Of a DNA stretch of 64,000 bases, positions 35,887 through 54,070 are shown piece after piece. Within the stretch, counting starts at the first letter, position 1. Each line of letters starts with the position of its first letter. The notes under the pieces are model-generated. The model worked only from the letters and a program-made list of their open reading frames with translations. It searched no databases and was not told the origin of the DNA. The position numbers and the translations under genes are program-made. Origin of the DNA: a bacterium (GTDB lineage: Bacteria > SZUA-182 > DTGQ01 > JAFGSM01); the NCBI GenBank assembly GCA_016934595.1, contig JAFGSM010000080.1:1000-64999 (forward strand), in the 5' to 3' direction.

Positions 35887-36369
35887 ATGATTAAGATTCT
35901 TGGTTCTTTAAGAAAAAACGAGACAGGCTTTACCTTGATCGAGGTAATGGTTGTGATAATCATGGTGGGTATCCTTGCGGCAATAGCCGTGCCCATTTAC
36001 ACCAATTATGTATACAGGGCCAGAACCAGTGAAGCTGTCTCAACACTGGGCGCAGTCAAGACTTATGTCCTGGAAAGACGCAATGCAACAGGCCGTTGGC
36101 CTACCGTTGATGAAATTAGAGCCGAATTTAGAGGCTTTAACGAGCTTTATTACTTCAACAACTCCACAATTAGACTCATTGAATCAGGGGATCGTTTGGC
36201 TGTACGTCTTGAGGCATCGGCCAATTTTGACGCGCCAAGCTCTATTACCGAACAATGGGTACAGTTAGATATCGATTTGAATGGGAATGATGCGAATATG
36301 GGATGGAGCGGGGGGATAGTAACCAGCTATGCAAGCCATCTCAAAGGATGCACATCCCCTTTAACATAA
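35887..36369 (+). CDS. Type IV pilin / pseudopilin (prepilin N-terminal methylation domain)
   Basis: ...NETGFTLIEVMVVIIMVGILAAIAVPIYTNYV... has the prepilin peptidase cleavage site (G|F) and the conserved Glu at position +5. Confidence 0.75.
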   Translation: MIKILGSLRKNETGFTLIEVMVVIIMVGILAAIAVPIYTNYVYRARTSEAVSTLGAVKTYVLERRNATGRWPTVDEIRAEFRGFNELYYFNNSTIRLIESGDRLAVRLEASANFDAPSSITEQWVQLDIDLNGNDANMGWSGGIVTSYASHLKGCTSPLT

Positions 36370-36427
36370 GCGAGTATCTGTATTCTTAATCTAAATAATA
36401 TAACAAGATATAAAGCGTGTTAACATA

Positions 36428-36901
36428 TTGAAAATTAGAATATTTTCAGGTTTAAAAGATCAGAAGCCGTCTTATGGTTCTATATTGATCGAGGTCCTGA
36501 TCTCTATTTTATTGCTGAGTTTTTTTATAATCGGATCTGTTTATTCTTATAGTTTTGTGCACCAGAGGATTCGCCGGCAACTGCATCGAAGAGTACTTTT
36601 AAGCGCCGCGCAGGGATGGATAGAGCAGACAAGGTTTCATTTAGTTAATATTGCCAGGGATACTACCTTGGATCCAAACCAGATCATGACCTCTTCGTTT
36701 CAACGAACCCAGGAAGGTTTGCTCAAGGCAAGATTCGATAAAGAATCCCAGGATATGTTAAACCTGGAACCTGATATGGCGACTATTGATATACATTTAA
36801 GCAATTCTGAGAATAATTTTGTAAATATTTTGATAACTGCGGAACTGGACGGATCGCCAGTAATATTATATACGCAGATCAGCCCGGATATACACAGATA
36901 A
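36428..36901 (+). CDS. Minor (pseudo)pilin, PilV-like
   Basis: Atypical prepilin N-terminus ...PSYGSILIEVLISILLLSFFIIG with the Glu at position +5 relative to the putative cleavage site. Confidence 0.5.
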   Translation: MKIRIFSGLKDQKPSYGSILIEVLISILLLSFFIIGSVYSYSFVHQRIRRQLHRRVLLSAAQGWIEQTRFHLVNIARDTTLDPNQIMTSSFQRTQEGLLKARFDKESQDMLNLEPDMATIDIHLSNSENNFVNILITAELDGSPVILYTQISPDIHR

Positions 36902-36927
36902 ATCAAGAACAGGTAATAAAAAGGCCA

Positions 36928-37539
36928 TTGGTATTAAAAGCTATCCGTAAAAAAAATATACATGGATTTACCCTGATAGAGATTTTGGTTGTTGTCGGCA
37001 TCATTGGCATATTGTTCAGCGCCGGCTTTGGATATTTTTTTAGCGGAGTCTGGCAAGAGCATCGAATATCTGAACAAAAACATTACCTGCAAAGGGAAGC
37101 CAGGTTTGCCATGGATTTTATAATCAATGGAACCATGCAGGCAAATAATCAGGGGTATTTTCGTTTTGGAGGTATCATCGGTTCCCACTTTGTTGAAATC
37201 AGCAATGACCCGAACAGCCAAGGGGGTAATGTGATAACGCTGAAGGACAAAGATAATAATCTGACCGGCCGCATCATGGGTTTCCCCGCGGAAAATCCTG
37301 TGTCTTTGATATTTGATGTAGATCAGGTATCGGGCAATGGCAATGAATTTGTTATAATCCCTCATCAGGTGCAGGATGAACCAGGCGCATTTGGTGTGAC
37401 TGTGAATTTTAGCCAGGACCCAAACAATCCTTCCCTGATCGGCATTGGCATCCAGCTTGACCGGCAAACACCGCAGGGCAGAGATTTAACTGTCCGGTTG
37501 TATTCATCTGTTGCATTAAGGAATGTAGGGGGCATTTGA
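36928..37539 (+). CDS. Minor (pseudo)pilin, PilW-like
   Basis: ...NIHGFTLIEILVVVGIIGILFSAGFGYF... prepilin-type N-terminal domain. Confidence 0.6.
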   Translation: MVLKAIRKKNIHGFTLIEILVVVGIIGILFSAGFGYFFSGVWQEHRISEQKHYLQREARFAMDFIINGTMQANNQGYFRFGGIIGSHFVEISNDPNSQGGNVITLKDKDNNLTGRIMGFPAENPVSLIFDVDQVSGNGNEFVIIPHQVQDEPGAFGVTVNFSQDPNNPSLIGIGIQLDRQTPQGRDLTVRLYSSVALRNVGGI

Positions 37540-37583
37540 ATACCCTTTGAAATGTTTATTTAGTTAGATATCTAATAAAAACC

Positions 37584-38969
37584 ATGGCTAACATAAACGA
37601 TATTAAAAATAATGATGACGGGGCTGTTCTTGTCCTTACAATGGTAGTTTTGCTTATCATCTCGATCCTCACATTATCCTTCTTCTATCTTCAAATCATG
37701 GAGGTAGATTTAATAGCCTATGAAACGGATTATATCCAGGCGTTTTACCTTGCAAATGCCGCTTTAGAGCATGGAATTAAACGCCTTATCGATGACCCAA
37801 ATGGTATTTCCACACAGTGGATATCTCTCAATCTCGAATCTGATATAGTAACGGCGCTAAATCTTGAGGAACCTCCTTTTATAGATTACAGGCATATACA
37901 AAACCAGGATGGAACTATCACAGTTCTGGCCAAGGCCAGGGTCAATAATATAGAAAGGAGAATCCAGGCAGGCATCATCCCCCCCAGCCGTTTTGGAAGC
38001 CAAAGCAGCGATTTCAATAAAAAAATATATGAAACAATCGAGGATCTAAAGGGTGATATACTAAAAGATGCAACCTTTACATCCATAAATAAACTGACAG
38101 GCGAGGTTCCCCTCAAATTGGTAGACATAGAGGCTAATCCCTATGGGATAAAGTTGTTGACGACAGATGATGCATACAAGGACGAATACGCCGCTGATAT
38201 TATAGAAGCATCCCCAAATGATGAACGTTATGCGGCTCTTTATATTGATCCCGAAAACACAAACTCCCTTGTCAAGGGATGGACGTATAAGATAAGCAGG
38301 GTAAGCGCTAACGATTATAACAACAACGAGCTTCTTTTTTACAAGGATGACGGCATCAGGGATTGTTATGAGTGGTGGACTAAAACTATCGATTGGGCAG
38401 ATTACAGTGAGTTTAACTTTAGCGAAAAGCGCGATGCCAAAACCAGCGCAGGGATTCCGGTTCATCCGATTTTGACACTCAAGGAGGGGAAAACACTTGT
38501 CCTTGTGCCTGGAACGTACTTTTTTGAAGAACTGACCCTGATGAAAAACTCAAGATTGGTCACAAACGGAGAGGTCATATTATTTGCCACAAAATGTATA
38601 ATAAACGAGGGCGCAAAGATGATGGGAACGGATCCGGATGACCTGAACAAACAGGTTCCTGAAAACCTGATAGCCATAATTGCAACGACAGTCGGCTCCA
38701 ACCTTACCCCCCAGATAGAAATAAAGGGAAGCGCAGAGGTGCATGGACATATTTTGGCTCCGGATGGCAAAACAACCCTCTATACAGGCACAAACTCCAA
38801 AACCCTTGTCAATGGTTCAATCTTTACAAAGGATTTTGCCTCGACATATACAAAAAACTATTATTCTTATACCTATCAAATTGGTTACGAGGGATGGCCT
38901 AATATGGGACGGCTGCAAACAATACCTGGATCTTGGAAAGAGATAGGGGACCCTAATGGAATATTATGA
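37584..38969 (+). CDS. PilX-like large minor pilin / pilus tip-associated protein
   Basis: An N-terminal hydrophobic helix following ...DDGAVLVLTMVVLLIISILTLSFFYL... matches the PilX_N pattern. It is a large, 461-aa beta-rich protein. Confidence 0.5.
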   Translation: MANINDIKNNDDGAVLVLTMVVLLIISILTLSFFYLQIMEVDLIAYETDYIQAFYLANAALEHGIKRLIDDPNGISTQWISLNLESDIVTALNLEEPPFIDYRHIQNQDGTITVLAKARVNNIERRIQAGIIPPSRFGSQSSDFNKKIYETIEDLKGDILKDATFTSINKLTGEVPLKLVDIEANPYGIKLLTTDDAYKDEYAADIIEASPNDERYAALYIDPENTNSLVKGWTYKISRVSANDYNNNELLFYKDDGIRDCYEWWTKTIDWADYSEFNFSEKRDAKTSAGIPVHPILTLKEGKTLVLVPGTYFFEELTLMKNSRLVTNGEVILFATKCIINEGAKMMGTDPDDLNKQVPENLIAIIATTVGSNLTPQIEIKGSAEVHGHILAPDGKTTLYTGTNSKTLVNGSIFTKDFASTYTKNYYSYTYQIGYEGWPNMGRLQTIPGSWKEIGDPNGIL

Positions 38970-39861
38970 ACTGTTCGGTTTAAAAAGGGAACCTTTTTCC
39001 TTATCTCCGGATCCGGATTTTTTTTATCATTCCCTTCACTATACCGAATGCCTGCAAAGGCTTGAAATATCCATCAGGCTTAGGCGCGGACTGAACCTTA
39101 TACTGGGGGATATGGGCACTGGAAAGACAACCATCAGCAGGATACTGATCAATAGATTTAAAAACGAAAAGGACAGGTTTCTATTCTTTCTAATCCTTGA
39201 CCCGTCATATAATTCGGAATTTCAATTTCTCTCTGCCTTGCTGCGGCTTTTTGATATAAAGCCAAAAAGGAGAAGCAGCCTTGATTATAAAGAGGCGTTG
39301 CAGGACTTTCTTTTCACCAAAGGCGTGCAGGAAGGAAAGGTTATAGTGCTCTTAGTGGACGAAGGGCAAAAGCTGGGGTCAATCCAGATCGAAATATTGC
39401 GAAGCCTTCTCAATTATGAGACAAACGAATACAAGCTGCTCCAACTTGTCATACTTGCCCAGCTTGAATTTCTGAATTTAATAGTGGAACATAAAAATTT
39501 TCTTGACCGTGTAAATTTCAATTACACAATCAGGCCGCTTACCCTGGAGGAGGCCAAATCTCTTATAGAATACAGGCTTCAAAAGGCAGGGCAGCCTGAA
39601 GGCAAATCCCTTTTTGCAGACGAGGCTATACGCCTGATCCATTTACATACAAAGGGATATCCCAGAAAAATAATCAAGCTGTGCCATCATTCTTTGATCT
39701 CCATGTACGCAAGGGGGAAGCAATGTGTGGATATCGGGATCGTGCAATCCCTTCAAGAAAATCAGGTTGTATTGGATAGCGACCTTTTCGCATTGAAACG
39801 AAATCTTCAACAATTCGGCAGGAGATGTTCACGCCCCTGGGCTCAGGCAGGCATTAAATGA
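38956..39861 (+). CDS. ExeA/GspA-like AAA+ ATPase
   Basis: Walker A GDMGTGKTTISRIL, Walker B VLLVDEGQKL and an overall AAA_22-like organisation. Confidence 0.7.
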   Translation: MEYYELFGLKREPFSLSPDPDFFYHSLHYTECLQRLEISIRLRRGLNLILGDMGTGKTTISRILINRFKNEKDRFLFFLILDPSYNSEFQFLSALLRLFDIKPKRRSSLDYKEALQDFLFTKGVQEGKVIVLLVDEGQKLGSIQIEILRSLLNYETNEYKLLQLVILAQLEFLNLIVEHKNFLDRVNFNYTIRPLTLEEAKSLIEYRLQKAGQPEGKSLFADEAIRLIHLHTKGYPRKIIKLCHHSLISMYARGKQCVDIGIVQSLQENQVVLDSDLFALKRNLQQFGRRCSRPWAQAGIK

Positions 39862-39884
39862 AAACTTACGGGTATTAATCAAAA

Positions 39885-41222
39885 ATGGAAGATAAAGATA
39901 AAGAGATCGCTGCCACAAACAGGCTCCTTAATATTATCAGGGGAGATGAAGGAGATTATAGTCCACAGCAAAAAGCAGTTAAGACATCTTCCAATGATGA
40001 GCAGAAGGAAGCCCAAAAAAAAGAGACAGGCTGGAAGACTGGAGGAAACCAGGACAATTCTGCATCGGCTATCAAGGTCCAAGAGAAGTTTTCACCTTTG
40101 CCCCAAAGTGGTTCGCCTCCTGCACAAGCCATATTCCAAAAAAAGGAAAAGAGACCGTCATGGCTCTCATGGATAAGAAACAGTGAAAAAAAGGCATTGG
40201 GTGTTGATATAGGTTCATACAGCCTTAAATATGTGCTTGTTCAAAAGGGTATTGGCGGCATTAAGTTGCTGGATTATAATATAGTTGACCTGCATCCAGA
40301 GGGAGGCGGCGATGCAGATGGCGGGATGTCGCCAGAAAAGGCCCTGCGGTCAATGGTTTCAGGAATCGATCTTGATTCCACTAAAGTAATTAGTTCGGTA
40401 AGCGGGCCATCTGTTATCGTCAGGCACGTCCAGTTCCCCCAGATGAGCGAAAAGGAGCTAATGTCATCATTAAACTGGGAGGCAAGGAGCTATATCCCCT
40501 TCCCGCTTGACGAAATCAACCTGGACTATCAAATCCTGCCCAGAAAGGAAAAGGACCGAAGGCTGGATGTCATTCTGGTGTCCGTCACAAAAAAACTGCT
40601 GCGCTCTCACCTGGATCTTTTGGAAAGCGCATATATAGAGCCTGCTATTGTGGATATAAATCCTTTATCCATGATAAACACTTATATGATGACCTGCAAT
40701 GACAATGAGGCCAAGACAATCGCCCTTCTTAATATGGGCGCCCAGTCTTCTTCATTGAGCATATATAGGATTGGAAGTCTATTTTTTACAAGGGATATCC
40801 GGATCGGTGGCAATTCGTTCACAAAACTGGTTCAATCAAAATTCAAGATTTCATATGCGGAGGCGGAATCGATAAAAAAGGGGGCATCCGGCAATGATAC
40901 CCCGACGGAAAAAACCCAGGATATGCAGAACATCTTCAAACCATTGCTTGATGAATTGATTTTGGAGACAAGGAGGTCATTGATTTATTATGACAACCAG
41001 ACAGGGAAAAAGGGCTTCAGTTTTATCGTATTGACCGGAGGCGGATCCCTGCTTAATGGCCTGCCTGAAACCCTGGAATCCGAGCTTGATATCCCTGTAC
41101 AATTTCTGGAACCTTTTAGAAAACTGCGCTTAGAGGGGGTCGTCTCCCCTGCGCTTTTGAAAAAAGAGATATCAGAAAGACTATCATTAAGCATCGGCCT
41201 TGCGTTAAGGGGGATTTCATGA
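39885..41222 (+). CDS. pilM: Type IV pilus assembly protein PilM (actin-like) with a ~100-aa disordered N-terminal extension
   Basis: LGVDIGSYSLKYVLVQK... (actin-fold phosphate-1 motif) and ...IVLTGGGSLLNGLPE... (phosphate-2 motif). Confidence 0.8.
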   Translation: MEDKDKEIAATNRLLNIIRGDEGDYSPQQKAVKTSSNDEQKEAQKKETGWKTGGNQDNSASAIKVQEKFSPLPQSGSPPAQAIFQKKEKRPSWLSWIRNSEKKALGVDIGSYSLKYVLVQKGIGGIKLLDYNIVDLHPEGGGDADGGMSPEKALRSMVSGIDLDSTKVISSVSGPSVIVRHVQFPQMSEKELMSSLNWEARSYIPFPLDEINLDYQILPRKEKDRRLDVILVSVTKKLLRSHLDLLESAYIEPAIVDINPLSMINTYMMTCNDNEAKTIALLNMGAQSSSLSIYRIGSLFFTRDIRIGGNSFTKLVQSKFKISYAEAESIKKGASGNDTPTEKTQDMQNIFKPLLDELILETRRSLIYYDNQTGKKGFSFIVLTGGGSLLNGLPETLESELDIPVQFLEPFRKLRLEGVVSPALLKKEISERLSLSIGLALRGIS

Positions 41223-41842
41223 AAAAAACCTTATTCAACATAAATCTGTACATGCCTGAGAAGAAGAAAAAAAAGGTGATTAAACCTCCCCGCGACGGCA
41301 GGTTCATGGGCATCGTTGCCTTTTTCGCGGCCATTGTGCTTATTCTCGTTATCGGATACCTTTTCTTTGGCATATATATCCCGCAAATGCGTATGATCGA
41401 GGATGCCCATTCCGAGGAAGAAAGGCTGGAATCGCAGCTTCAGGGGATAAAGGCCGTTTCACAAAGGCTGGCAAGGAAAAAGGGATTATATTTAGATATA
41501 AGGGGCGAGGCCGTTTCCTGGCCTGAAAAATTGCTTGCGATTATGGATGCCTTGCCTGAAAGCATCTGGCTTCACAAGCTCGACTTTCAGGGCCGGTCTG
41601 GAGATGTCAAAGGGGGACAGACCCTTACTATCTCCGGATTTACATTCTCAGGCGCAATGAAAGGCAACCTTGATCAAATCGGGATATTTTTAACAAACAT
41701 AAATCAATCCGCCGAATTTGAAGCAGAATTCGACCCGCTGCGGCTGGATTTTACCCGCAAATCGAAATCTGAACAGGGCACAGTCGAATTTCAGCTCACG
41801 GGAAAGGCCAGGGATTTGGCTTTGTCGGCATACACCCGATAA
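41219..41842 (+). CDS. pilN: PilN-like inner-membrane pilus assembly protein
   Basis: A short cytoplasmic N-terminus, one TM helix (MGIVAFFAAIVLILVIGYLFFGI) and a periplasmic coiled-coil domain. Position after pilM, with a 4-nt overlap. Confidence 0.6.
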   Translation: MKKTLFNINLYMPEKKKKKVIKPPRDGRFMGIVAFFAAIVLILVIGYLFFGIYIPQMRMIEDAHSEEERLESQLQGIKAVSQRLARKKGLYLDIRGEAVSWPEKLLAIMDALPESIWLHKLDFQGRSGDVKGGQTLTISGFTFSGAMKGNLDQIGIFLTNINQSAEFEAEFDPLRLDFTRKSKSEQGTVEFQLTGKARDLALSAYTR

Positions 41843-41856
41843 GGAATTAATAAAAT

Positions 41857-42822
41857 ATGAAAAAGGCCGGTTATTACTTCATTTTTATTTGCCTGTTTTT
41901 GGTTGTCGCTATATGTTTCGTCTTTTATTATACCTTGTATAGACCCAATCAGGTTGAATTGACGCGAACCGAAAACAAGATCAATGCCCTCAAGGAAGAA
42001 ATCCGGTCAAACGAAAAGACTATCGACGCGATAAGAAAAGATATATCGGGTTTTGACCTCAGTCCGGTGAACATCAACTATTTTAACCGTAACAAGGGCA
42101 AAGGAGAAGAAAGGTCCGCCCTTTTTCTCAAATCTTTAAATGACCTTTCAAACAAACTGGGTGTAAGGTTGATTTCTATAACACCAGGTCCTTCCAAACA
42201 AAATCCGGATTACACAAAAGACACCTTCGAGGTACTATTGACATCCGATTTTCAGAGATTGATACACCTCCTTTTTTATTTGAAAAACACCATCGGCCTC
42301 AATATGGACCGTTTGAACATCGTCAAGGAGGATAATAAAGGCATTTCCGACCTGACCGTCCTTTTATTGCTGAACACATTGGAAATGACAGAGCCTGAAG
42401 AACAAAAAGCAGGCAACCTCGAAGAGCTTAGGGCCTTGCATATTGAAAGCGAGCCGAACCTTAGCGATATAAAACCTGCAAAAACAAAAGATCCCGACAA
42501 TTTTCTTGCATCCCTGGGCGTTGCGCAGGACAATGCGAGGGACCCCTTTGCAAAACCCGAATTTATAGCGCAAGTCCAGGAAAAATTAAATCAGATCGAA
42601 AAGGATTTACAGGCAAGCAGGCTTCTAGGCATAATCGATTTTGACGGACAAAGGCATGCCATAATCGGGAATCATACAGTAAAAAGGGGTGAAAAAATCT
42701 TCAACATGGAGGTTCTGGAGATATTGCCGGATGCCGTAGTCCTGGGAAACAACAATTTAAGGTTTACATATCAGCTTAAAGAAAACGAAACCAATTTAAA
42801 CAAAAAACAAGGAGAACTCTAA
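41857..42822 (+). CDS. PilO-like protein with a C-terminal PilP-like beta domain (apparent PilO-PilP fusion)
   Basis: TM helix plus coiled coil (PilO-like). The C-terminal ...LLGIIDFDGQRHAIIGNHTVKRGEKIFNMEVLEILPDAVVLGNNN... resembles the PilP beta-sandwich. No separate pilP ORF lies before the secretin gene. Confidence 0.5.
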   Translation: MKKAGYYFIFICLFLVVAICFVFYYTLYRPNQVELTRTENKINALKEEIRSNEKTIDAIRKDISGFDLSPVNINYFNRNKGKGEERSALFLKSLNDLSNKLGVRLISITPGPSKQNPDYTKDTFEVLLTSDFQRLIHLLFYLKNTIGLNMDRLNIVKEDNKGISDLTVLLLLNTLEMTEPEEQKAGNLEELRALHIESEPNLSDIKPAKTKDPDNFLASLGVAQDNARDPFAKPEFIAQVQEKLNQIEKDLQASRLLGIIDFDGQRHAIIGNHTVKRGEKIFNMEVLEILPDAVVLGNNNLRFTYQLKENETNLNKKQGEL

Positions 42823-42823
42823 T

Positions 42824-44371
42824 ATGAAGGATCATCATATATCTGCATCATGCAGGGTGTTATTGTGTATATCCTTGATGCTCACAATGGTCTTGTTTGC
42901 CAACATGACATCATACGCTCAATTCAGACGCAGGTATCATGGAATAGATCTCGATTTCCCCGGGAAAAAATGCTCTATGAAATTAGTGGGCGCAGAAGTC
43001 TCAGATGTCCTCCGCACATTTGCCAATCAGTACAAGCTCAACCTTGTTGTCGGGGCTGACGTATCCGGCAAAATCGACCTGACGTTAAAAGATGTGGATA
43101 TCAAGGATGCCTTTTTGACTATACTTCGTTCTGCCAAACTGGCATATATAAAAGAGGGAAAGATTTACAGGATCATGCCTCTGGAAAAACTGGCAGAGGA
43201 AAACAGGCTGGAAGAAAGCTCGCTTGATATGGAAATAAAGATATTCAGCCCCCAATATGCAAGCGCTCCGAGGCTTGCAAAAAGCATGCAAAATCTTCTG
43301 TCAAAAAGGGATGGCACTTTCATAGATGCCGATGAAAGGACCAATTCCATTGTCGTCAAGGACATTCCGCAAAAACTTTATGAAATGGAGAGACTTTTCA
43401 GATTATTGGATGTGGAACAGGTTACAGACGTTCGCTCTATAGACACAGAAATCATAGAATTAAAATTTATAGATATAAAGGAGATGGGCAAAAATGTGGG
43501 GTCAATGATATCAAACGCAGGGAGGGTTGACATCAATGAAAAAACCCATTCCTTGATAATATCGGATATAAGCGAAAATCTTGTGCAGATCAAAAACCTG
43601 ATAAACAAACTGGATAAACCTTCAAGACAGGTATATATAAAGGCGAAGATAGTTGAGGTCACAAAGAACTTTAGCAGAGACATTGGCATACAATGGGGGG
43701 GACATTATACAGACGGCCCCCCGTCAGGCAAGACGTTTCCAAAGGTTACCCTGACTGGGATGGGTGATATCCAGAATTTCGCCGTGAATTTGCCTACGAC
43801 CTTAAACCCGGCATACGGCGGAATCGGCCTCTCCCTCGGACACATTAATAATAAAGCGCAATTGGATGTTCAATTAAAGGCGCTGGAAGACAAGGGCGAG
43901 GCCCATGTCTCATCCTCGCCTGAAATAGTCACCCTGGACAATACAAAGGCCGTAATAGAAACGGGGACACGGGTTCCATATAGAACCTTAGATTTGGGCG
44001 CAGGAACAGCCGAAGCCGCCACTGTTAAATATTTTGATGCCTTTACACGGCTGGAGGTCATACCCCACATCACCTCGGATAACCGTATAAAGATGAAAAT
44101 CATAGCAGATAAGGATTGGGCTGATATTACAAAAGGGGTGGATGGCAATCCATTGATATTCCGGAAGGGGGCTGAGACAGAACTAATAGTCAAGGATGGC
44201 GAGACAACTGTGATAGGGGGTCTCTCTATAAGTGAATCCAAGGAATCCCGGAAAAAGGTGCCGTGGTTTGCCGATATACCCTTAATCGGCGCCCTGTTTA
44301 AAAATAGTTTCAAATCCAAAAACTATGATGAGGTCCTGATCTTCATCACGCCTCATATTATTGAAAATTGA
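42824..44371 (+). CDS. pilQ: Type IV pilus / T2SS secretin (PilQ/GspD family)
   Basis: Signal peptide, secretin_N repeats and the conserved C-terminal secretin domain (...TTVIGGLSISES...VPWFADIPLIGALFK...VLIFITPHII). Confidence 0.85.
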   Translation: MKDHHISASCRVLLCISLMLTMVLFANMTSYAQFRRRYHGIDLDFPGKKCSMKLVGAEVSDVLRTFANQYKLNLVVGADVSGKIDLTLKDVDIKDAFLTILRSAKLAYIKEGKIYRIMPLEKLAEENRLEESSLDMEIKIFSPQYASAPRLAKSMQNLLSKRDGTFIDADERTNSIVVKDIPQKLYEMERLFRLLDVEQVTDVRSIDTEIIELKFIDIKEMGKNVGSMISNAGRVDINEKTHSLIISDISENLVQIKNLINKLDKPSRQVYIKAKIVEVTKNFSRDIGIQWGGHYTDGPPSGKTFPKVTLTGMGDIQNFAVNLPTTLNPAYGGIGLSLGHINNKAQLDVQLKALEDKGEAHVSSSPEIVTLDNTKAVIETGTRVPYRTLDLGAGTAEAATVKYFDAFTRLEVIPHITSDNRIKMKIIADKDWADITKGVDGNPLIFRKGAETELIVKDGETTVIGGLSISESKESRKKVPWFADIPLIGALFKNSFKSKNYDEVLIFITPHIIEN

Positions 44372-46110
44372 TTGACATGTCCCAGAAAAAGTACCGATCA
44401 GGATATACACAGATAGGAGAGCTGCTAATACAGGAAGGGCTGATTACCCAGCCCCAATTAGAGCAGGCTTATAATAAACAAAAACATACAGGCGAACGAA
44501 TCGGCGTGATCCTGGTAAACATGGGTATCATTTCGGAGCAGAGTCTTCTAAAAGGTTTGGCCAAACAGCTCAATATAGATTACATCCCTGCCCCTGATCT
44601 TGCTAAAATAGATAGTGACACTGCCGGTATTATCCCTGAGCATCTGGCCCGCAAACACCTGGCCATACCTTTTAAAAAAGTCCATGATTCCCTAAAGGTG
44701 ATTATGGCCGACCCCTTCGATCTTCTCTCAATCGATGATTTACAGCGAATCACAGGCATGGATATCAAGCCTGCCATCAGTTCAGGAAAGGATATCGAGG
44801 CAGCCATCGCCCAAATCTATAAACCAAAAGAGGAGAAAAGGATACTCGAAGTGCTCGAGAACCTCCAATCCACACAGATGGAGGTCGAAAAGAAGACAGA
44901 CGAAGAAGGCCCGGACCTGGAAACAATAAAGGAACAGGTTGAGGATGCGCCTATTGTCAAGCTTGTCGATTACATAATCACCAATGCCGTCAATAAACGG
45001 GCAAGCGACATACATGTAGAACCGCAGGAAGGCAATGTTCTAATCCGGTACCGGATCGACGGCGTGCTCTATGACATAATATCGCCTCCCAGAAATCTCC
45101 GCATGGCTATCACTTCCAGGATAAAAATCCTTTCCAATCTTGATATAGCGGAAAGAAGGCTCCCTCAAGACGGGCGTTTTACAATCAAATACAACAACAG
45201 AGAGATAGACCTGCGCGTATCATGCGTGCCAACTATATTTGGAGAAAAGATTGTCTTGAGGCTGCTGGAAAAAACGGTGTTCGGTTTTCAGTTTGAAAAA
45301 CTCGGATTGGATACAAACCAGCTTGAGATAGTCAAACATTACATGTATCAGCCATACGGGATGATCCTCCTTACAGGGCCAACAGGAAGCGGCAAATCAA
45401 CCACCCTTTATGCTATACTATCGAGGATCCGTTCCCCTGAAAAGAATATTATTACTATTGAAGACCCCGTTGAGTATCAAGTCAAGGGAATAAATCAGAT
45501 TCAGGCAAATTTCAAGATAGGGCTGACCTTCGCGAATGGCCTTCGGTCTATTCTGCGTCAGGACCCTGATACGATTATGGTGGGAGAAATCAGGGACCAG
45601 GAAACGGCTGAGATAAGCATCCGTTCAGCGCTAACCGGTCATCTGGTCTTTTCTACTTTGCATACGAATGATGCGATCGGCACAGTGGTGAGATTGATAA
45701 ACATGGGAATCGAACCTTTTCTGGTATGCAATTCCCTATCTCTTGCAATAGCCCAAAGGCTGGTGCGCCGTATCTGCGTTGAGTGCCGCGAGGCATATAC
45801 GCCCAGCTCCACCCTCCTCGAAAACTTCGGCCTTAAACCCGACAAAAGAGAAGAGATACTCTTCTATCGCGGCAAAGGCTGCAACGCCTGTAATTATACC
45901 GGTTATCTGGGCCGTGTAGGTATCTTTGAGGTCATGGTCATGACACAGGACATTCGGAACCTTGTGTTACAAAACGCACTTCCCAGCATTATAAAACGGA
46001 AGGCCCAGGAAAATGGGATGACAACGCTCCTGGAGAGCGGCCTTCATAAGGTCATCCAGGGCGTGACCAGCATAGATGAGGTCATGAGCACTTGTATTGA
46101 GGAAGAATAG
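44368..46110 (+). CDS. pilB: Type IV pilus assembly ATPase PilB / GspE family
   Basis: N-terminal GSPII_E_N domain, Walker A GPTGSGKSTT, Asp box, Walker B ...IMVGEIRD, His box, and a tetracysteine motif CVECREAY...CNAC. Confidence 0.9.
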   Translation: MIDMSQKKYRSGYTQIGELLIQEGLITQPQLEQAYNKQKHTGERIGVILVNMGIISEQSLLKGLAKQLNIDYIPAPDLAKIDSDTAGIIPEHLARKHLAIPFKKVHDSLKVIMADPFDLLSIDDLQRITGMDIKPAISSGKDIEAAIAQIYKPKEEKRILEVLENLQSTQMEVEKKTDEEGPDLETIKEQVEDAPIVKLVDYIITNAVNKRASDIHVEPQEGNVLIRYRIDGVLYDIISPPRNLRMAITSRIKILSNLDIAERRLPQDGRFTIKYNNREIDLRVSCVPTIFGEKIVLRLLEKTVFGFQFEKLGLDTNQLEIVKHYMYQPYGMILLTGPTGSGKSTTLYAILSRIRSPEKNIITIEDPVEYQVKGINQIQANFKIGLTFANGLRSILRQDPDTIMVGEIRDQETAEISIRSALTGHLVFSTLHTNDAIGTVVRLINMGIEPFLVCNSLSLAIAQRLVRRICVECREAYTPSSTLLENFGLKPDKREEILFYRGKGCNACNYTGYLGRVGIFEVMVMTQDIRNLVLQNALPSIIKRKAQENGMTTLLESGLHKVIQGVTSIDEVMSTCIEEE

Positions 46111-47356
46111 GGAGAGACAAGACTTGCCTTTTTATACATACAAAGCTAGAGAATTTAATGGCAAAACCTTTAGCGGCATTATGGACGTGGAAAATGAGGA
46201 TGCCTTGATAGAAAGGCTGCACCGGAGGGATGCGGTGCCCTTAAATATCAATATTGTCAATGCGCCGCCCAAAAGATCCTCCTTCTTTGAAAAACTTAAG
46301 ATAGGGATCAAACGCACAACCAATCCTATAAGGCTGCATGAGATCCTCATGTTTACGCATCAGTTGTCGGCGATGTTCAGCTCCGGCATACCACTGTCAA
46401 GGAGCCTTCAATCGATCGCCATAGACTCGAAGAACAAACACCTCCAGGAGATCATCACAGAAATATACCGCTCCATTGAGGCAGGGGAAGACCTGTCCCA
46501 GGCCATGTCCCGATATCCGGAGGTCTTTGATGAATTATATGTTAATTTGATCCGTTCAGGGGAGATAAGCGGAACCCTGGCGATAGTCTTGCCCCAACTC
46601 GTATCATATATTGAAAGGTATTTAGAGGTCAGGGGTAAGGTTAAGGCCGCCATCACATATCCTTTTGTCATTATAAGTTTCGCCATACTGGTTATAGCCT
46701 TTCTGGTTCTTATCATCGTACCCAAGTTCGGCATCATATATAATCGCCTTAAGGCCCCGCTTCCATTGCCGACCAAGATACTTCTTACAGGGAGCCAGTT
46801 GATCAGACAAAATTTTTTTGCGATGATATTTTTATCGCTGATGATCCTGTTTCTGCTTTATCTATGTTTTCAAACCGAAAGGATAGAGTTTTTATGGGAC
46901 AGAGCAAAGCTAAGAATCCCCATATTTGGCCCCCTTGTTCTAAAAAGCATTTTTGCCAAATTCTGTAAAACACTGTCCGTTCTTCTCCAAAGCGGATTGC
47001 CCATTATTCAGTCTATACAGATTGCTTCCAATACACTAAACAACCGCTATTTGCAGCATGTCCTTGAAAAATGCAATCTGAGCATACAGAAAGGGGCATC
47101 GATATCAGAGGCATTTGCGGAATCCAGCGCCTTCCCTGATTTACTGATCCAAATGGTCTCTTCAGGCGAAGAATCTGGCACCCTTCATATAATGTTAGAG
47201 AAGACATCAAATTTTTATCAGCAACAGGTCAATAGCACTGTCAACGCATTAACCTCTATAATAGAGCCCATATTGATCATCATTATCGGAGTGATAGTCG
47301 CCGGGATAGCCATAGCCGTTTTCCTTCCGATCTTTAAAATGGGAGAGGCGTTGTAA
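46097..47356 (+). CDS. pilC: Type IV pilus / T2SS platform protein PilC / GspF family
   Basis: Two T2SSF repeats (…FTHQLSAMFSSGIPLSRSL… and …FCKTLSVLLQSGLPIIQSI…) with three TM helices. Confidence 0.85.
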   Translation: MRKNRERQDLPFYTYKAREFNGKTFSGIMDVENEDALIERLHRRDAVPLNINIVNAPPKRSSFFEKLKIGIKRTTNPIRLHEILMFTHQLSAMFSSGIPLSRSLQSIAIDSKNKHLQEIITEIYRSIEAGEDLSQAMSRYPEVFDELYVNLIRSGEISGTLAIVLPQLVSYIERYLEVRGKVKAAITYPFVIISFAILVIAFLVLIIVPKFGIIYNRLKAPLPLPTKILLTGSQLIRQNFFAMIFLSLMILFLLYLCFQTERIEFLWDRAKLRIPIFGPLVLKSIFAKFCKTLSVLLQSGLPIIQSIQIASNTLNNRYLQHVLEKCNLSIQKGASISEAFAESSAFPDLLIQMVSSGEESGTLHIMLEKTSNFYQQQVNSTVNALTSIIEPILIIIIGVIVAGIAIAVFLPIFKMGEAL

Positions 47357-48594: not shown

Positions 48595-49692
48595 ATGTTG
48601 GAAAAACTGCCTTTTAAAAATCTCATCAAGACGTTATCCGCTTTGTTTTATGTTTTTGTTCTATCCATCCTTTTCGTTAATTCGTTAAATATCGCCCGAG
48701 CCCAAGAAGCGAAATCAGTTTCAGACATATATATCGTGACGGAAGGAGACACCTTATGGGACATATCAGCCAGATTTTTTGGCGATCCCTTCCTTTGGCC
48801 AAGCCTGTGGCAAAAAAATCCACAGGTCAATGACCCTCACTGGATATACCCAGGACAAATCATCTACCTGAAAGAATCTCCCCTGGCGGTTTCTAAACCC
48901 AGCCCAATCAAGCCCCTTAAAACATCCCTTGAAAAAGAGGCTATTGAAACAAAGGCCGTGGCCATCGAAGATTCTCTAACTGCCAAAACCCGTTATGATA
49001 TCTCGCAGGACAAGATGGATAGCTGCAGCTATATAATCCCTGTCTCGGTTTTTAATCAAAGGCAGAAAGAAGAAGGTTCCGGCAAGATCACCAACAGCAA
49101 AGAAGAAAAAATAAGCCTCAGTTATCTTGATCATGTCTATATAGATTTGGGTGAAGGAAAGGTCAAACCTGGGCAAATCATGAGCATATTTAGGGCCGAA
49201 TATGACACAAATGGCCTTAAAGGACTAAATGAGCCCCATTGCATGATACGCATCCTTGGAAAGGCAAAGGTATTAGAGGTGCAAGATAATATGAGCTTGG
49301 CCGAGATCATAAAATCCTATCATGCAATATCCATAGGGGATATGCTAACGCCTTATCAAGCGATGCCCAAACCCGTCCTTAAACCTCCGAAGGTAAAAGA
49401 CCTGGATGGTTCAATAGTTGCGAGCGAGGAACCAAAGGAATATCTTTCCGATTTTGATACCGTTTTTTTAAATTTAGGGAAAAGGGATGGATTGGAATCC
49501 GGAAATCCTCTTGAAATATACCGTCTGAAGCAAATTAAGACGGGAGCAAACGATAAAACGGGAGATTTGATTGTTGTTCCGCTTGGCGAAGTCCTTGTAT
49601 TAAAAACCGAGGATGGCACTTCAACAGGGATGGTCACCAAAAGCATTCAGCCTGTCCTGCTTGGAGACAGAATAAGGGTTTATCAGGATTAA
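48595..49692 (+). CDS. LysM-domain peptidoglycan-binding protein
   Basis: Signal peptide, then the LysM motif IYIVTEGDTLWDISARFFGD...LWQKNPQV...PGQIIYL. Confidence 0.65.
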   Translation: MLEKLPFKNLIKTLSALFYVFVLSILFVNSLNIARAQEAKSVSDIYIVTEGDTLWDISARFFGDPFLWPSLWQKNPQVNDPHWIYPGQIIYLKESPLAVSKPSPIKPLKTSLEKEAIETKAVAIEDSLTAKTRYDISQDKMDSCSYIIPVSVFNQRQKEEGSGKITNSKEEKISLSYLDHVYIDLGEGKVKPGQIMSIFRAEYDTNGLKGLNEPHCMIRILGKAKVLEVQDNMSLAEIIKSYHAISIGDMLTPYQAMPKPVLKPPKVKDLDGSIVASEEPKEYLSDFDTVFLNLGKRDGLESGNPLEIYRLKQIKTGANDKTGDLIVVPLGEVLVLKTEDGTSTGMVTKSIQPVLLGDRIRVYQD

Positions 49693-49726
49693 ACCCTCAT
49701 GAACAAAAGTTGTTCGCACCAGAGGA

Positions 49727-49762
49727 TGAAAATGTATTTTCATGGTAAAAGGCGTGGTTCAA
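49727..49762. promoter_or_regulatory. Short member of the structured repeat family, placed as a bidirectional terminator-like hairpin between convergent genes
   Basis: CACCAGAGGATGAAAATgtATTTTCATGGTAAAAGG contains an 8-bp perfect palindrome (ATGAAAAT/ATTTTCAT). It shares the CAC.A..GG.ATGAAAAT-ATTTTCA.G..AAAA frame of the repeat family. Confidence 0.45.
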
Positions 49763-49766
49763 TCAC

Positions 49767-51767
49767 CTAATTTTTTGTATCCACTCCGTCACTATCAAAT
49801 ATGATTGCCGGACTTTTATCCATTTGCCGATCCAAGACCTGTATAAATGCATGAACAACCTTGGGGTCAAATTGGGTACCTGCGCATCGCCTGAGTTCCT
49901 CTATGGCAGCTTCATGACTTTTTGCCTTTCTATAAGGGCGATCGGATGTCATCGCATCATATGAGTCAGCCACGGATAATATCTTTGTTTCTATAGAAAT
50001 ATCCGAAGGCCCAAGGCCGTCTGGATAGCCTTTGCCGTCATATCTTTCATGATGGTGACGGATACCGTCCTTTACATCCTTTAAAAAGTCTATATGGTCT
50101 ATAATCCTGCTGCCTATCTGGGAATGCTCACGAATAATCTTGATCTCTTCAGGAGTCAGGTTTATAGTCTTGTGAAGGATATTCAGGCTTACGCCGATCT
50201 TGCCTACATCATGAAGAATGCCTGCGTGCCGAATGACCTCCAGGCTTTTTTCGCCAAGATTTAGAGACCTGCCGACTTCCAGCGACAGGCGTGTAACCCT
50301 TTCGGAATGTCCATATGTATAGGGGTCTTTTGCTTCTATGGCATTTACCAGCGCCCTTATCGCATCAAAATAACTCTTCTTAAGATCTCTGTACAGATTG
50401 GAGTTTTCAAGGGCCACCGCCGCTTCACATGAAATAGTAGTAAGAAGTTCCAAGTCGCTTACAGAAAAGGCGCATCCGTCATCCCTGTCTATCATCCCAA
50501 TGATCCCTATTATCTTTCCCTTGGCCTGAAGGGGGGCATAGAGTACAGTTTTAGGGATGTATGTCCTGTCACCGTTACCTAAAAACCGGCCGTCTGCTTT
50601 GAAATCCGGCAAAAGCAACGCCTTTTCACTTTCAAACACATATTTCGCTATCTTTCTGTGTATCGAATCCTCCCAGAATTCCTTTCCTTTATCTGCGCAC
50701 ACCAGACATTTCAGTTCTATCTCGCCTGTGTTCCTCTCAACTACCGATATGAGCCCCGCCTTTGCATGCACAATAGCCGATGTCATCTTAAGGATCGAGT
50801 CCAAAAGGGTGTCTATATCCAGCACCGAATTTATATCTTTGCCGATATTATTAAGCGTCGTCAAGATGTTTAATGTCCTCTGTAACAAACGGTTTTTTTC
50901 TTCTATCTGAGATTTATACTTTAATTCTTCCTCTGCTTTTACAAGGGCATTCTCCTTCTTCAGGTCTTCTTCGTGAAGGCTGTTTATCTCCTTGATCATA
51001 AAGTTGAATGTATTGCCTAATTCTCCGATTTCATCTTCGGTATCAACCTTGACCCTTGCATGCCAATCGCCGTTCCTAACGATATCCATAATCCTGATTA
51101 ATCTTCTAACCGGACGGTCAACTAAATGCCCTAAAATGAAGTATATGGATATAGAAATAAGCAACAATGTGAAGACTGCGGAGATAATCATAAAGACGCG
51201 TGTGGCGATTATCGGAACGCTCATCCATGCAATAGACACATTGACATCCAGGACGCCCATTATGTTTTCATCTTTTGTATGGCACTCATAGCATGGAGGC
51301 TTGCCTTCAATAGGCTTGAGCATGGATATGAGCCTTCTTTCGAGATCGATATGAACGACCTCCCGCTGCCCGTTTCTGATCATATTTAAATTAGGCAATT
51401 CTGTCTTCTGTCCTTCTTCATCCATCTTTGCAGAGATCAATATAAGCCCATCCTCAGTAACTATACGAAGATCCCTCATATCGCTCTCAGATCCGATAGT
51501 GAACAACAGGTCCCTTACATCATCATGTTTGCCTATCAACATTGAATGGACAATACTGTTCTCTATTGTCTCAGTTAAAAGGATTGCCCTGCGGCGGGAA
51601 TTGTCCAAAAATTGCCTGGTCTGCATGTATATGCTGATATAGGTCGAGGAGCCTATCCATATAACAAGAATAAGAAACATGAAAAGGATCACTTTGAGAT
51701 AAAGCCGCCTTTTTATATAGTTATGAAGGGAAAAGATAAAATGTCTGATTGTGTTTTTAATCTTCAC
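49767..51767 (-). CDS. Membrane sensor protein: periplasmic domain with a c-type heme-binding CxxCH motif, then HAMP, GAF and an HD-GYP c-di-GMP phosphodiesterase domain
   Basis: Two TM helices bracket a roughly 150-aa periplasmic domain containing PPCYECHTKDEN. HAMP-like coiled coils and a GAF domain follow. The HD-GYP motifs are HDVGKIGV, HHERYDGKGYPDGL and a conserved metal-binding HD. Confidence 0.75.
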   Translation of the reverse strand: MKIKNTIRHFIFSLHNYIKRRLYLKVILFMFLILVIWIGSSTYISIYMQTRQFLDNSRRRAILLTETIENSIVHSMLIGKHDDVRDLLFTIGSESDMRDLRIVTEDGLILISAKMDEEGQKTELPNLNMIRNGQREVVHIDLERRLISMLKPIEGKPPCYECHTKDENIMGVLDVNVSIAWMSVPIIATRVFMIISAVFTLLLISISIYFILGHLVDRPVRRLIRIMDIVRNGDWHARVKVDTEDEIGELGNTFNFMIKEINSLHEEDLKKENALVKAEEELKYKSQIEEKNRLLQRTLNILTTLNNIGKDINSVLDIDTLLDSILKMTSAIVHAKAGLISVVERNTGEIELKCLVCADKGKEFWEDSIHRKIAKYVFESEKALLLPDFKADGRFLGNGDRTYIPKTVLYAPLQAKGKIIGIIGMIDRDDGCAFSVSDLELLTTISCEAAVALENSNLYRDLKKSYFDAIRALVNAIEAKDPYTYGHSERVTRLSLEVGRSLNLGEKSLEVIRHAGILHDVGKIGVSLNILHKTINLTPEEIKIIREHSQIGSRIIDHIDFLKDVKDGIRHHHERYDGKGYPDGLGPSDISIETKILSVADSYDAMTSDRPYRKAKSHEAAIEELRRCAGTQFDPKVVHAFIQVLDRQMDKSPAIIFDSDGVDTKN

Positions 51768-51993
51768 TAACTTGTCCTCTTATCTTTATAAATCGGCTTT
51801 TTGCCCGTTGATGAACTAAAATCAGGATAATATGACATATAACTTTTTCTATTTGACATTATGGATAGACAAAACTATACTGTCAAATGGAATAAGTGTT
51901 TTCATTTAAAGCGACCCTGTTGTTTTTTGTTTTCAAAAATATCTCATTAAACATCCAAGACTATAAATATTTAAAATAGTCATAAACAAGCAC

Positions 51994-52566: not shown

Positions 52567-52899
52567 ATGCAAGTTCTAAAGATGATATTATTTATACTCC
52601 TTGTGGTGCTTGTAGTCACCTTCGTGCTTCAAAATCAATGGATAATACAGGAAAGATTCTCTGTGAGATACTTTTTATATGAAACTGTCCCCATATCTTT
52701 GTCTATTATACTGCTGATCACCTTTTCCCTTGGCGCGTTTCTTTGCGCATGCTGTTATATTATAAAAAACAACAAATTGAAAAGGCTCCTAAATCAGCAT
52801 AAAAAAAAGATAAAACAGATGGAGAAGGAGCTTGTCTCTCTAAGGAACCTTCCTATAACTGAAGATCAAAAAAGGGAAACGCCTATCCAGGCTGGCTGA
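52567..52899 (+). CDS. lapA: LapA-like inner-membrane protein (DUF1049)
   Basis: Two TM helices followed by a basic coiled-coil tail. It lies directly upstream of a LapB-like gene with a 2-nt gap. Confidence 0.55.
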   Translation: MQVLKMILFILLVVLVVTFVLQNQWIIQERFSVRYFLYETVPISLSIILLITFSLGAFLCACCYIIKNNKLKRLLNQHKKKIKQMEKELVSLRNLPITEDQKRETPIQAG

Positions 52900-52900
52900 T

Positions 52901-54070
52901 ATGTCGTTTTATATTTTATCAATCATATTCGCATGCATAGCCCTTTTTATCGGGATATTAGTGGGCCGTTATTTGATTCCATCATCATCACAACCAGAGC
53001 CACTTGATGCCCTTGAAATGGAAAAGGGGGCTTATATCAAGGGTTTAAAATACATCATCTCCAACGAGCCTGATAAGGCCATTGCGGAATTCACCCGCGC
53101 AGTTCAAATAAACTCTGATACGGTTGAAATCTATATCAATCTTGGAAATCTCTTTAGGGAAAAGGGTGAAATTGAGAGGGCTATAAGGATACATCAAAGC
53201 ATACTGCTCAGACCCAAACTCAGTCAATCGGTCAAAGAATCCGCTCTTATGGATCTGGGCCTTGACTACTCGGCTGCCGGTCTTTTTGACCGGGCTATCA
53301 GCACGTTTCAACAGCTCATATCCCTGAATCCCGACAATCCTCAAGCACACAGAGAGCTTGAAAAACTCTATGAGGAAGAAGCAGAGTGGGAAAATGCCTT
53401 TGATGAGGCCAAAAAATATAAAAGAATGTCCGGTTCCGATGCCTCTTCTCTGTTGGCTCATATTATCACAGAGCTGGGAAAAGAGTTGTATAACAAAAAT
53501 GAAAACAATCAGGCTATTAAGGAACTAAAACGGGCTATAAGCATTAATAAAAATTCCACAGAGGCATATCTGATACTTGGCGATATATTTTTTTCCGAGG
53601 GAAAACTCGGCCATGCCATAGCTGCGTGGGAAAAGATCATACATCTTAACCTCCCTTTTAGCTATTTTGCGTATGAAAAATTGGAGAAGGCATATCTAAA
53701 AAAAGGGGACTATGATCATATAGAACAAATCTACAGAGAGGTTCTTGCCAAAAGGCCTGATGATTTTACCACCCGAATCATACTTGCGGAATATTATCAA
53801 AAGAAGGGGCTAAGCAATAAGGCCGTCAAAGAACTACGGGATGCCATAAGGTTTAAGCCCAAATCCTTAACCATTAGAAAAAAGCTTGGCGAGATATTGT
53901 TGAAGGAAGACCTCAAAGACGCAATCCGCAATGAATATCAGGCTTTGATTGAAGAAATGAAAGGGCAAAGGATTTACTCCTGCAGTAAATGCGGTTATCA
54001 GGGAATAGATTTTATATGGAAGTGTCCCCAATGCAAAGAATGGGACACCTTTGTTGAAGAAGATACATGA
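52901..54070 (+). CDS. lapB: LapB/YciM-like TPR protein with a C-terminal rubredoxin-type zinc ribbon
   Basis: N-terminal TM, multiple TPRs, and C-terminal CSKCGYQGIDFIWKCPQCKEWDTF (CxxC...CxxC), as in LapB. Confidence 0.8.
   Translation: MSFYILSIIFACIALFIGILVGRYLIPSSSQPEPLDALEMEKGAYIKGLKYIISNEPDKAIAEFTRAVQINSDTVEIYINLGNLFREKGEIERAIRIHQSILLRPKLSQSVKESALMDLGLDYSAAGLFDRAISTFQQLISLNPDNPQAHRELEKLYEEEAEWENAFDEAKKYKRMSGSDASSLLAHIITELGKELYNKNENNQAIKELKRAISINKNSTEAYLILGDIFFSEGKLGHAIAAWEKIIHLNLPFSYFAYEKLEKAYLKKGDYDHIEQIYREVLAKRPDDFTTRIILAEYYQKKGLSNKAVKELRDAIRFKPKSLTIRKKLGEILLKEDLKDAIRNEYQALIEEMKGQRIYSCSKCGYQGIDFIWKCPQCKEWDTFVEEDT

Follow-up and report, generated by a model that had tools for sequence, protein, structure and literature searches.

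A 64,000-nucleotide stretch of a bacterial genome assembly (GCA_016934595.1, contig JAFGSM010000080.1, positions 1,000 to 64,999; the whole stretch is referred to here as the window) contains, on its minus strand at 49767..51767, a gene for a membrane protein in which a periplasmic domain bearing a single c-type haem attachment motif (CxxCH) is coupled through HAMP and GAF domains to an HD-GYP phosphodiesterase domain. Our preferred reading of this protein, which we hold with a probability of roughly three in four, is that a ligand switch at a periplasmic haem c would report redox state and/or nitric oxide (NO), and would thereby control the hydrolysis of c-di-GMP (cyclic dimeric guanosine monophosphate) by the HD-GYP domain, the likely target being the MshEN-containing ATPase of a type IV pilus encoded next to the gene. 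This reading builds on the domain order, the topology, the homology of the domains and the conservation of the haem and catalytic residues, all of which we observed and describe below.

Gene and domain organization

An earlier note on this DNA, prepared by inspection of the letters alone, had assigned an HD-GYP phosphodiesterase to 49767-51767. We recovered exactly this open reading frame (ORF) on the minus strand; it encodes 666 amino acids (aa), starts with GTG and is preceded by a ribosome binding site (AAGAGGA) 8 nt upstream. The National Center for Biotechnology Information (NCBI) holds an identical protein under the name "HD domain-containing protein [bacterium]". A promoter-like site, TTGACA-17-CATAAT, with 11 of 12 matches lies on the same strand at 51858..51886, ∼90 nt upstream of the GTG, although the region has no more sites of this kind than shuffled sequence does and this one can be regarded only as a match to the consensus.

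Kyte-Doolittle hydropathy revealed two hydrophobic segments in the protein, at ∼aa 22-48 and aa 186-213, which we designate transmembrane segments TM1 and TM2. Basic residues are found at the N-terminus and in the stretch following TM2, and since both of these regions are positively charged, aa 49-185 are placed in the periplasm. The periplasmic loop contains one CYECH motif (aa 159-163), just as the earlier note had described for a domain bracketed by membrane segments, and the two cysteines of this motif, C159 and C162, are the only extracytoplasmic cysteines of the protein. A Pfam search returned HAMP, GAF and HD-GYP domains with the boundaries that had been proposed, giving the order TM1, periplasmic domain, TM2, HAMP, GAF, HD-GYP. 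The features are as follows.

49767..51767, minus strand: the whole gene, encoding an sCache_haem-TM-HAMP-GAF-HD-GYP protein (ORF and Pfam)
51624..51704, minus strand: TM1, aa 22-48, following a cytoplasmic N-terminus that bears positive charge (hydropathy)
51213..51623, minus strand: periplasmic domain, aa 49-185, a predicted haem-c sensor of the sCache_haem / PF21563 Mcp40H-20_sensor type
51540..51542, minus strand: Met76, the predicted distal axial haem ligand (conservation and alignment to GSU0935)
51279..51293, minus strand: CYECH, aa 159-163, with the predicted haem-attachment cysteines C159 and C162 and the predicted proximal ligand His163
51129..51212, minus strand: TM2, aa 186-213 (hydropathy)
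50982..51116, minus strand: HAMP, aa 218-262 (Pfam E 1e-9)
∼aa 263-315, minus strand: coiled-coil linker after HAMP
50409..50819, minus strand: GAF, aa 317-453 (Pfam E 5e-10)
49857..50354, minus strand: HD-GYP (Pfam HD_5), aa 472-637 (E 3.7e-39)

The GAF domain also contains a CLVC motif (C354/C357; 50697-50708, minus strand). The orthologues have Tyr or His and Gly at these positions, and we therefore rejected it as a second redox site common to the family; it is probably incidental, though it could represent a thiol switch specific to this lineage.

The predicted periplasmic haem-c sensor domain

The CxxCH motif is scarce in the window: with all six frames read, only two ORFs of 100 aa or more contain it. 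One is the HD-GYP gene and the other is a 551-aa ORF at 9425-11080 (plus strand), just after a tRNA gene at 9174-9246, which has five CxxCH motifs and a Pfam match to Cytochrome_C554. The presence of this multihaem cytochrome indicates that the organism can mature c-type cytochromes.

To identify relatives of the sensor domain we relied on an exhaustive HMMER search of 1.84 billion representative sequences with aa 44-190 as query, since a word-indexed search with aa 1-216 had returned a single, truncated relative. At E <= 1e-3 the exhaustive search gave 211 relatives, and among the matches listed 141 of 150 carried CxxCH, those without it being mostly short fragments. The two residues inside the motif vary freely among relatives. 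C159, C162 and H163 are invariant in sensor alignments of 91 (A3) and 40 (A2) sequences, while in an alignment of the 141 CxxCH-bearing domains they are kept in 140, 120 and 138 sequences, respectively, and the shortfall at C162 may reflect an alignment shift. M76 is kept in 138 of these 141 domains, compared with 34 for the nearby H74, which we rejected as a candidate distal ligand on this ground. Other near-invariant columns of the same alignment, besides M76 and the motif residues, are G107, S112, G119, P152, I153, an Asn at position 155, G171 and L173. We also aligned 49 full-length proteins, namely that of the window and 48 orthologues with 32-72% identity to it; CxxCH, M76 and every HD-GYP residue that we checked are kept in all 48 orthologues, so that M76 is present in 49/49.

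A profile built from 40 sensor domains matched two crystal structures of Geobacter haem-c sensor domains, 3b42 (GSU0935; E 1e-16) and 3b47 (GSU0582; E 4.7e-12). The match runs end to end (positions 4-128 of the 135-residue chain), with the window CxxCH in register with the CQSCH of both structures and M76 aligned with "YMM" of 3b42 and "LMM" of 3b47. The distal ligand of GSU0935, Met60, was placed in the "YMM" stretch by position, subject to the offset between chain numbering and that of the publication. In addition, 72 of the 91 full-length relatives matched PF21563 (Mcp40H-20_sensor) at E <= 1e-3. These results bear out the likeness to Geobacter haem-c sensors that the earlier note had pointed to, and they contradict the possibility, named in the same note, that the CxxCH might be fortuitous. 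By these comparisons the periplasmic domain truly belongs to the GSU0582/GSU0935 family, its CxxCH is not fortuitous, and it very probably carries a covalent haem.

We also modelled the sensor domain with AlphaFold2. A single-sequence model with a mean predicted local distance difference test (pLDDT) score of 35 was discarded, and a rerun with a 40-sequence alignment gave a pLDDT of 91.8 and a predicted template modelling (pTM) score of 0.85. The model has an sCache/PAS-like fold with a five-stranded sheet, in which a long N-terminal helix ends at M76 and the CxxCH lies on a short helix (aa 157-161) directly before the final strand. The best Foldseek match in the PDB was the extracellular sCache domain of WalK (E 2.4e-6, TM-score 0.63), followed by 3b42, 3b47, CitA, DcuS, DctB and Tll0287. 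Direct comparison with 3b42 and 3b47 gave a TM-score of 0.44 and a root-mean-square deviation of ∼14 Å, with a single-sequence similarity of ∼23%. The low score and high deviation arise because the crystals of 3b42 and 3b47 are helix-swapped dimers (PMC8396549, PMC3460858) and the model is an unswapped monomer.

GSU0582 and GSU0935 thus share with the window protein the fold, the CxxCH in the same insertion before the last β-strand, the aligned Met, and the placement between two transmembrane helices followed by HAMP, but their output is a methyl-accepting chemotaxis protein signalling domain in place of GAF-HD-GYP. A 2026 preprint reclassified them, together with DUF3365/Tll0287, as "sCache_haem" and gave a CxxCH conservation of at least 99% (PMC12889525). 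The haem of GSU0935 is ligated by His144 and Met60, and in both Geobacter proteins oxidation gives a high-spin haem and reduction a low-spin one; the difference between their midpoint potentials was read as a sign of redox-range sensing (PMC8396549).

The nature of the signal is the point on which an alternative reading fares best. The same haem protein may respond physiologically to NO (or carbon monoxide, CO) and not to redox, the gas displacing Met76 or binding a five-coordinate haem, with c-di-GMP hydrolysis regulated as in H-NOX and NosP circuits. We regard this as possible rather than probable. In GSU0582 and GSU0935, NO reversibly displaces Met60 whether the haem is oxidised or reduced, and CO does so in the reduced state (PMC8396549). 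The preprint on sCache_haem found that a HAMP-linked member has an NO off-rate comparable to those of H-NOX and NosP and does not make a stable complex with O2 (PMC12889525). The window sensor shares its fold and haem residues with these NO-binding domains. However, the NO-sensing protein of P. azotoformans was chosen for its lack of an axial Cys ligand, with water proposed in the sixth position, whereas the subfamily of the window protein has a near-invariant Met, as do the Geobacter proteins whose midpoint potentials were interpreted in terms of redox range. Moreover, the window ORFs that we scanned included none for NO metabolism. Sequence alone cannot separate the two signals; our preferred reading names periplasmic redox and/or NO as the candidate input.

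The HD-GYP output domain

Among solved structures, the best match to the whole protein was PmGH from Persephonella marina (4mcw; E 8.5e-46, aa 366-648), which aligns with the GAF domain from aa 366 onward as well as with the HD-GYP domain. PmGH is soluble and, unlike the window protein, lacks a sensor, transmembrane segments and HAMP; the two proteins share the GAF-HD-GYP unit. Its metal ligands H189, H221/D222, H250, H276/H277 and D305 correspond in the alignment to H487, H519/D520, H548, H572/H573 and D601 of the window protein, and its K225 and D308 correspond to K523 and D604. Seven of the eight PmGH metal ligands are therefore kept. The eighth, E185, is replaced by Y483 within the sequence D-P-Y-T-Y-G-H, and this position is occupied by Tyr or Phe in 49/49 full-length proteins. 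The signature HHERYDGKGYP (aa 572-582) is complete, and the seven shared ligands, K523, D604 and the whole of HHExxDGxGYP are invariant in all 49 proteins, so that the domain does not lack catalytic metal ligands, the defect that the earlier note had named as counting against its proposal. PmGH has a trinuclear iron site that includes E185, whereas the "Y-T-Y" cluster is part of the Y/F subfamily, for which a binuclear and not a trinuclear metal centre is predicted (PMC4159591); Y-T-Y at the position of E185 assigns the window HD-GYP domain to this subfamily. An RxxR motif, R610-P-Y-R613, is likewise invariant in 49/49 and agrees with the Rxx(K/R) of PmGH. Rxx(K/R) is associated with c-di-GMP-type selectivity, and HD-GYP domains specific for cyclic GMP-AMP (cGAMP) carry Rxx(Q/N) (10.1101/600031). 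Judged by these residues, the domain is predicted to hydrolyse c-di-GMP.

That it instead degrades 3',3'-cGAMP, in the manner of the V-cGAP enzymes and PmxA, appears improbable to us. This alternative draws on the isolated HD-GYP region, whose best structural match was V-cGAP3 of V. cholerae (5z7c; E 2.5e-35) as compared with E 2.3e-33 for PmGH. The whole-protein query, on the other hand, favoured PmGH as noted above, R613 of the RxxR motif is invariant in 49/49, and the corresponding Q518R mutation switches PmxA to c-di-GMP (10.1101/600031). The MshEN motif found in the neighbouring pilus ATPase (see below) is a c-di-GMP binder to which cGAMP binds only weakly (PMC5013675), and the partner gene found beside the HD-GYP gene in five relatives encodes a GGDEF cyclase, which would tell against cGAMP unless it is of the Hypr type.

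We also considered that the domain might be weakly active or inactive and serve as a c-di-GMP-binding or protein-interaction module like the degenerate Bd1817, which we judge very unlikely. The substitution of Tyr for the PmGH metal ligand E185 is what would speak for it. Some enzymes of the Y/F subfamily, PA4781 among them, reportedly hydrolyse c-di-GMP poorly. On the other side stand the invariance of the seven ligands, which are those shared by both active subfamilies, and of the further catalytic residues listed above, the weak match to Bd1817 itself (3tm8; E 8e-6), and the finding that an E185A mutant of PmGH keeps its activity (PMC4159591).

Genomic neighbourhood and a possible c-di-GMP circuit

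The surroundings of the gene suggest a target for the predicted hydrolase. The features concerned are listed below, together with the cyclase genes of related loci from metagenome-assembled genomes (MAGs), for which the coordinates are those of the respective locus.

35887..47356, plus strand: MSHA-like (mannose-sensitive haemagglutinin-like) type IV pilus cluster, with pilins, PilX, AAA_22, PilM, PilN, secretin, an MshE-type T2SSE ATPase and T2SSF
44410..44568, plus strand: tandem MshEN motif of 53 residues (two 24-residue motifs and a 5-residue spacer), at the N-terminus encoded by the ATPase gene 44368-46110
L001 11953-13080 (plus strand), L002 11986-13110, L004 12038-13126, L005 924-2006 and L008 8705-9793: GAF-GGDEF genes of five related MAG loci

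In the window the pilus cluster is followed by genes for DUF6812, a TPR protein resembling YbgF and a protein with LysM (48595-49692, plus strand). The HD-GYP gene converges with the LysM gene, leaving 74 bp (49693-49766) between the two stop codons, and a terminator scan of this gap found no convincing bidirectional terminator. The earlier note had the gene lying just downstream of the pilus cluster, which is accurate as to adjacency and needs amending as to orientation, the gene being on the opposite strand. Beyond its other end lie genes for HIT, LapA, LapB and MutS.

Adjacency of the HD-GYP gene to the pilus block is kept in 8/8 related MAG loci, at 56-79% identity. Three of the eight have 56-59% identity, and of the two among these with upstream sequence, L003 and L007, both have a different flank on the other side. 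The HIT-LapAB-MutS flank is present only in closer relatives, and L003 has an oligopeptide ATP-binding cassette (ABC) transporter in its place.

The ATPase of the pilus cluster carries the N-terminal sequence QIGELLIQEGLITQPQLEQAYNKQ-KHTGE-RIGVILVNMGIISEQSLLKGLAKQ, which matches Pfam MshEN with E 2e-17 and has the layout of the canonical domain, that is, tandem 24-residue motifs joined by a 5-residue spacer (PMC5013675). Motif II shows no deviation, and motif I has Tyr for the last Leu. In 5/8 MAGs (L001, L002, L004, L005 and L008) the HD-GYP gene is followed immediately downstream, on its own strand, by a gene for a 375-aa GAF-GGDEF cyclase. This gene separates the HD-GYP gene from the convergent LysM/pilus block, and in L001 it overlaps the 3' end of the HD-GYP gene by 25 nt. 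The cyclase gene is absent from L003, L006 and L007 as well as from the window locus, which has only the 74-bp gap at this point. An Rfam scan of the window found only the tRNA at 9174-9246, which leaves the pilus genes without a nearby riboswitch for c-di-GMP or cGAMP.

With the neighbourhood kept in 8/8 loci and the MshEN motifs in place, the link between this protein and the pilus, which the earlier note had offered as a possibility, is better supported than its author could have known, within the limit that it is a link of neighbourhood and that the HD-GYP gene has its own promoter region. A stronger version, in which the haem-c HD-GYP protein is dedicated to regulating the adjacent MSHA-type pilus locally and works in sister genomes alongside a GAF-GGDEF cyclase co-transcribed with it, and in which periplasmic redox potential or NO, sensed by the covalent haem, sets a local c-di-GMP level for MshEN, we put forward tentatively and consider somewhat unlikely.

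Several other genes of this region were noted. The DUF6812 gene (47391-47702, plus strand) directly follows the pilus platform gene and is kept in 8/8 related loci at 52-69% identity; DUF6812 may thus serve the pilus system as an accessory not yet characterised. An ORF at 41857-42822 (plus strand), one of four sizeable ORFs without a Pfam match, occupies the position of PilO/PilP or MshK in the pilus cluster and is kept in related loci at 24-49% identity; the other three are at 11087-11698, 13741-15192 and 15150-16550, all on the minus strand. The LapA (PF06305) and LapB (TPR plus Zn_ribbon_LapB) genes form a pair at 52567-54070 (plus strand) next to the HIT-family gene and mutS, and this pair indicates a diderm organism that contains lipopolysaccharide.

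Distribution of the architecture and comparison with known systems

The earlier note called this architecture uncommon, which overstates the case. About 50 clusters (90% identity) cover at least 90% of the length of the protein with the same HAMP-GAF-HD_5 content, and many of them were already annotated with PF21563. They include proteins of the Desulfuromonadales Desulfuromonas sp. TF and Geothermobacter ehrlichii, which are PF21563-positive, 679-684 aa long and ∼33-35% identical to the window protein. Across the 91 full-length sensor relatives the most frequent output was a histidine kinase (68), followed by HD-GYP (11), GGDEF (2) and nucleotide cyclase (2); sixteen of the 91 bear a GAF domain, including all 11 HD-GYP proteins. 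A list of twelve Geobacter sulfurreducens signal transducers with c-haem motifs, as it appears in PMC8396549 citing Londer et al. 2006, contains GSU2622 as a "HAMP/GAF/HD-GYP protein". Given this listing and the recurrent clusters, HD-GYP is a minority output of these sensors, yet one that recurs and was catalogued already; the combination of haem c, HAMP, GAF and HD-GYP is not new and has been on record in Geobacter since 2006. By its published description GSU2622 has the same order as the window protein, a periplasmic sensor with a single CxxCH followed by HAMP, GAF and HD-GYP, and the two may be orthologous; a cluster look-up for GSU2622 returned only Geothermobacter and Pseudomonadota MAG names.

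A survey reported that no HD-GYP protein with an extracytoplasmic sensor had been characterised experimentally by 2021 (10.1101/2021.11.05.467447), and haem-c/HD-GYP is not among the extracytoplasmic sensor partners that it gives (Galperin and Chou, 10.1101/2021.11.05.467447). The first of these statements is qualified by PmxA, a partly characterised Cache-HAMP-HD-GYP protein (10.1101/600031). Likewise, the common outputs of sCache_haem named in the legend of Fig. 2 of PMC12889525 do not include HD-GYP.

PmxA of Myxococcus xanthus resembles the window protein in having an extracytoplasmic Cache-type sensor, two transmembrane segments, HAMP and HD-GYP, but it has no reported haem motif and no GAF domain, and it is cGAMP-specific with RxxQ where the window protein has RxxR (10.1101/600031). 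The use of a metal-cofactor sensor of gas or redox to control HD-GYP is shared with the globin-coupled HD-GYP protein of Vibrio fluvialis (PMC10882959), and the same sensor-cofactor logic is found in a Ferrovum hemerythrin-HD-GYP protein, as cited in 10.1101/2021.11.05.467447. The sensors of these two proteins are cytoplasmic, with haem b or di-iron as the cofactor and a direct fusion to the output, whereas the window protein has a predicted covalent haem c in the periplasm, from which a signal would have to cross the membrane via HAMP.

Discussion

We propose that the protein is a dimeric inner-membrane one-component signalling enzyme with one c-type haem on C159 and C162, H163 being the proximal ligand and M76, at the end of a long N-terminal helix continuing from TM1, an exchangeable distal ligand. 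By analogy with the Geobacter proteins, the oxidised haem would be high-spin with Met off and the reduced haem low-spin with Met on, and NO or CO would displace the Met; periplasmic redox potential would then be the primary signal and NO a displacing ligand. The ligand switch is envisaged to move the M76 helix and to be transmitted through the transmembrane helices, HAMP, the coiled coil and GAF to the HD-GYP domain, a PmGH-like enzyme of the Y/F type with a predicted binuclear metal centre, which would hydrolyse c-di-GMP at a rate raised or lowered by the switch. In this lineage the target would be the adjacent MSHA-type pilus, reached through the MshEN receptor domain of its assembly ATPase, and the redox or NO state of the periplasm could in this way tune pilus assembly and surface attachment.

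A number of observations weigh against this proposal. With respect to the sensor, the window protein by itself scores only E 0.037 (14.8 bits, below the 27-bit cutoff) against PF21563, although the match spans positions 3-111 of the 112 in the profile, and a single-sequence search with it reaches 3b42 with only E 1.6; since the window sequence alone is below threshold, its membership in sCache_haem/PF21563 rests on the profile. The Asn found four residues before CxxCH in 130/141 sensor domains (motif PIxNxxxCxxCH) is Gly155 in the window protein (51303-51305, minus strand), a departure from the norm of the sensor family that is seen in 15/49 full-length proteins, the window protein included. 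With respect to the pilus, the HD-GYP gene converges with the pilus block and is not co-transcribed with it, the link is one of neighbourhood only, and no other c-di-GMP genes (GGDEF, EAL or PilZ) were found among the ∼45 window ORFs scanned. The first residue of MshEN motif I is Gln in the window, as it is in L001, L002 and L004, and not the Arg that is present in L008 and that matters for c-di-GMP binding by V. cholerae MshE (PMC5013675). The Desulfuromonas sp. TF orthologue (33% identity) lies among housekeeping genes and, in contrast to the window gene, away from pilus genes, which indicates that the pilus association is specific to the lineage of the window. Finally, we found no published haem-binding, redox or enzyme assays of haem-c/HD-GYP fusions, GSU2622 included.

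The sensor observations could be taken to mean that the CxxCH is fortuitous or vestigial and that the periplasmic domain is a haem-free, small-molecule-binding sCache, an idea for which the sub-cutoff PF21563 score, the Asn155Gly substitution close to the motif and the haem-free sCache domains among the top Foldseek matches (WalK, CitA, DcuS and DctB) can be cited, but which we consider exceedingly unlikely because the CxxCH is invariant in 48/48 orthologues, the most distant of which have 32% identity, and occurs in 141/150 listed relatives while the two residues inside it are free to vary, the Met ligand co-varies with the motif (138/141), the profile places it in register with two domains that bind haem in crystals, C159 and C162 are the only two cysteines of the loop, and the multihaem cytochrome in the same window implies the presence of a maturation machinery.

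The earlier note was in essence right in both its observation and its reading. As the result of a genome scan, the haem-c sensor HD-GYP protein is a known design that has been annotated correctly and does not constitute a new kind of protein; we found no biochemical study of this architecture. Its ∼50 clusters, in which haem and catalytic residues are invariant, would make a tractable family in which to follow how a ligand switch at a periplasmic haem leads to the turnover of a second messenger, and the conserved MshEN-pilus neighbourhood, with its GGDEF partner in sister genomes, offers a testable circuit by which surface attachment would depend on redox conditions or NO in the surroundings. 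If the stronger version, that of a dedicated pilus regulator, is true, it would give the first characterised HD-GYP domain to be driven by an extracytoplasmic sensor with a cofactor and wired to a defined output, and pilus assembly and attachment in these bacteria would be switched by the availability of external electron acceptors.

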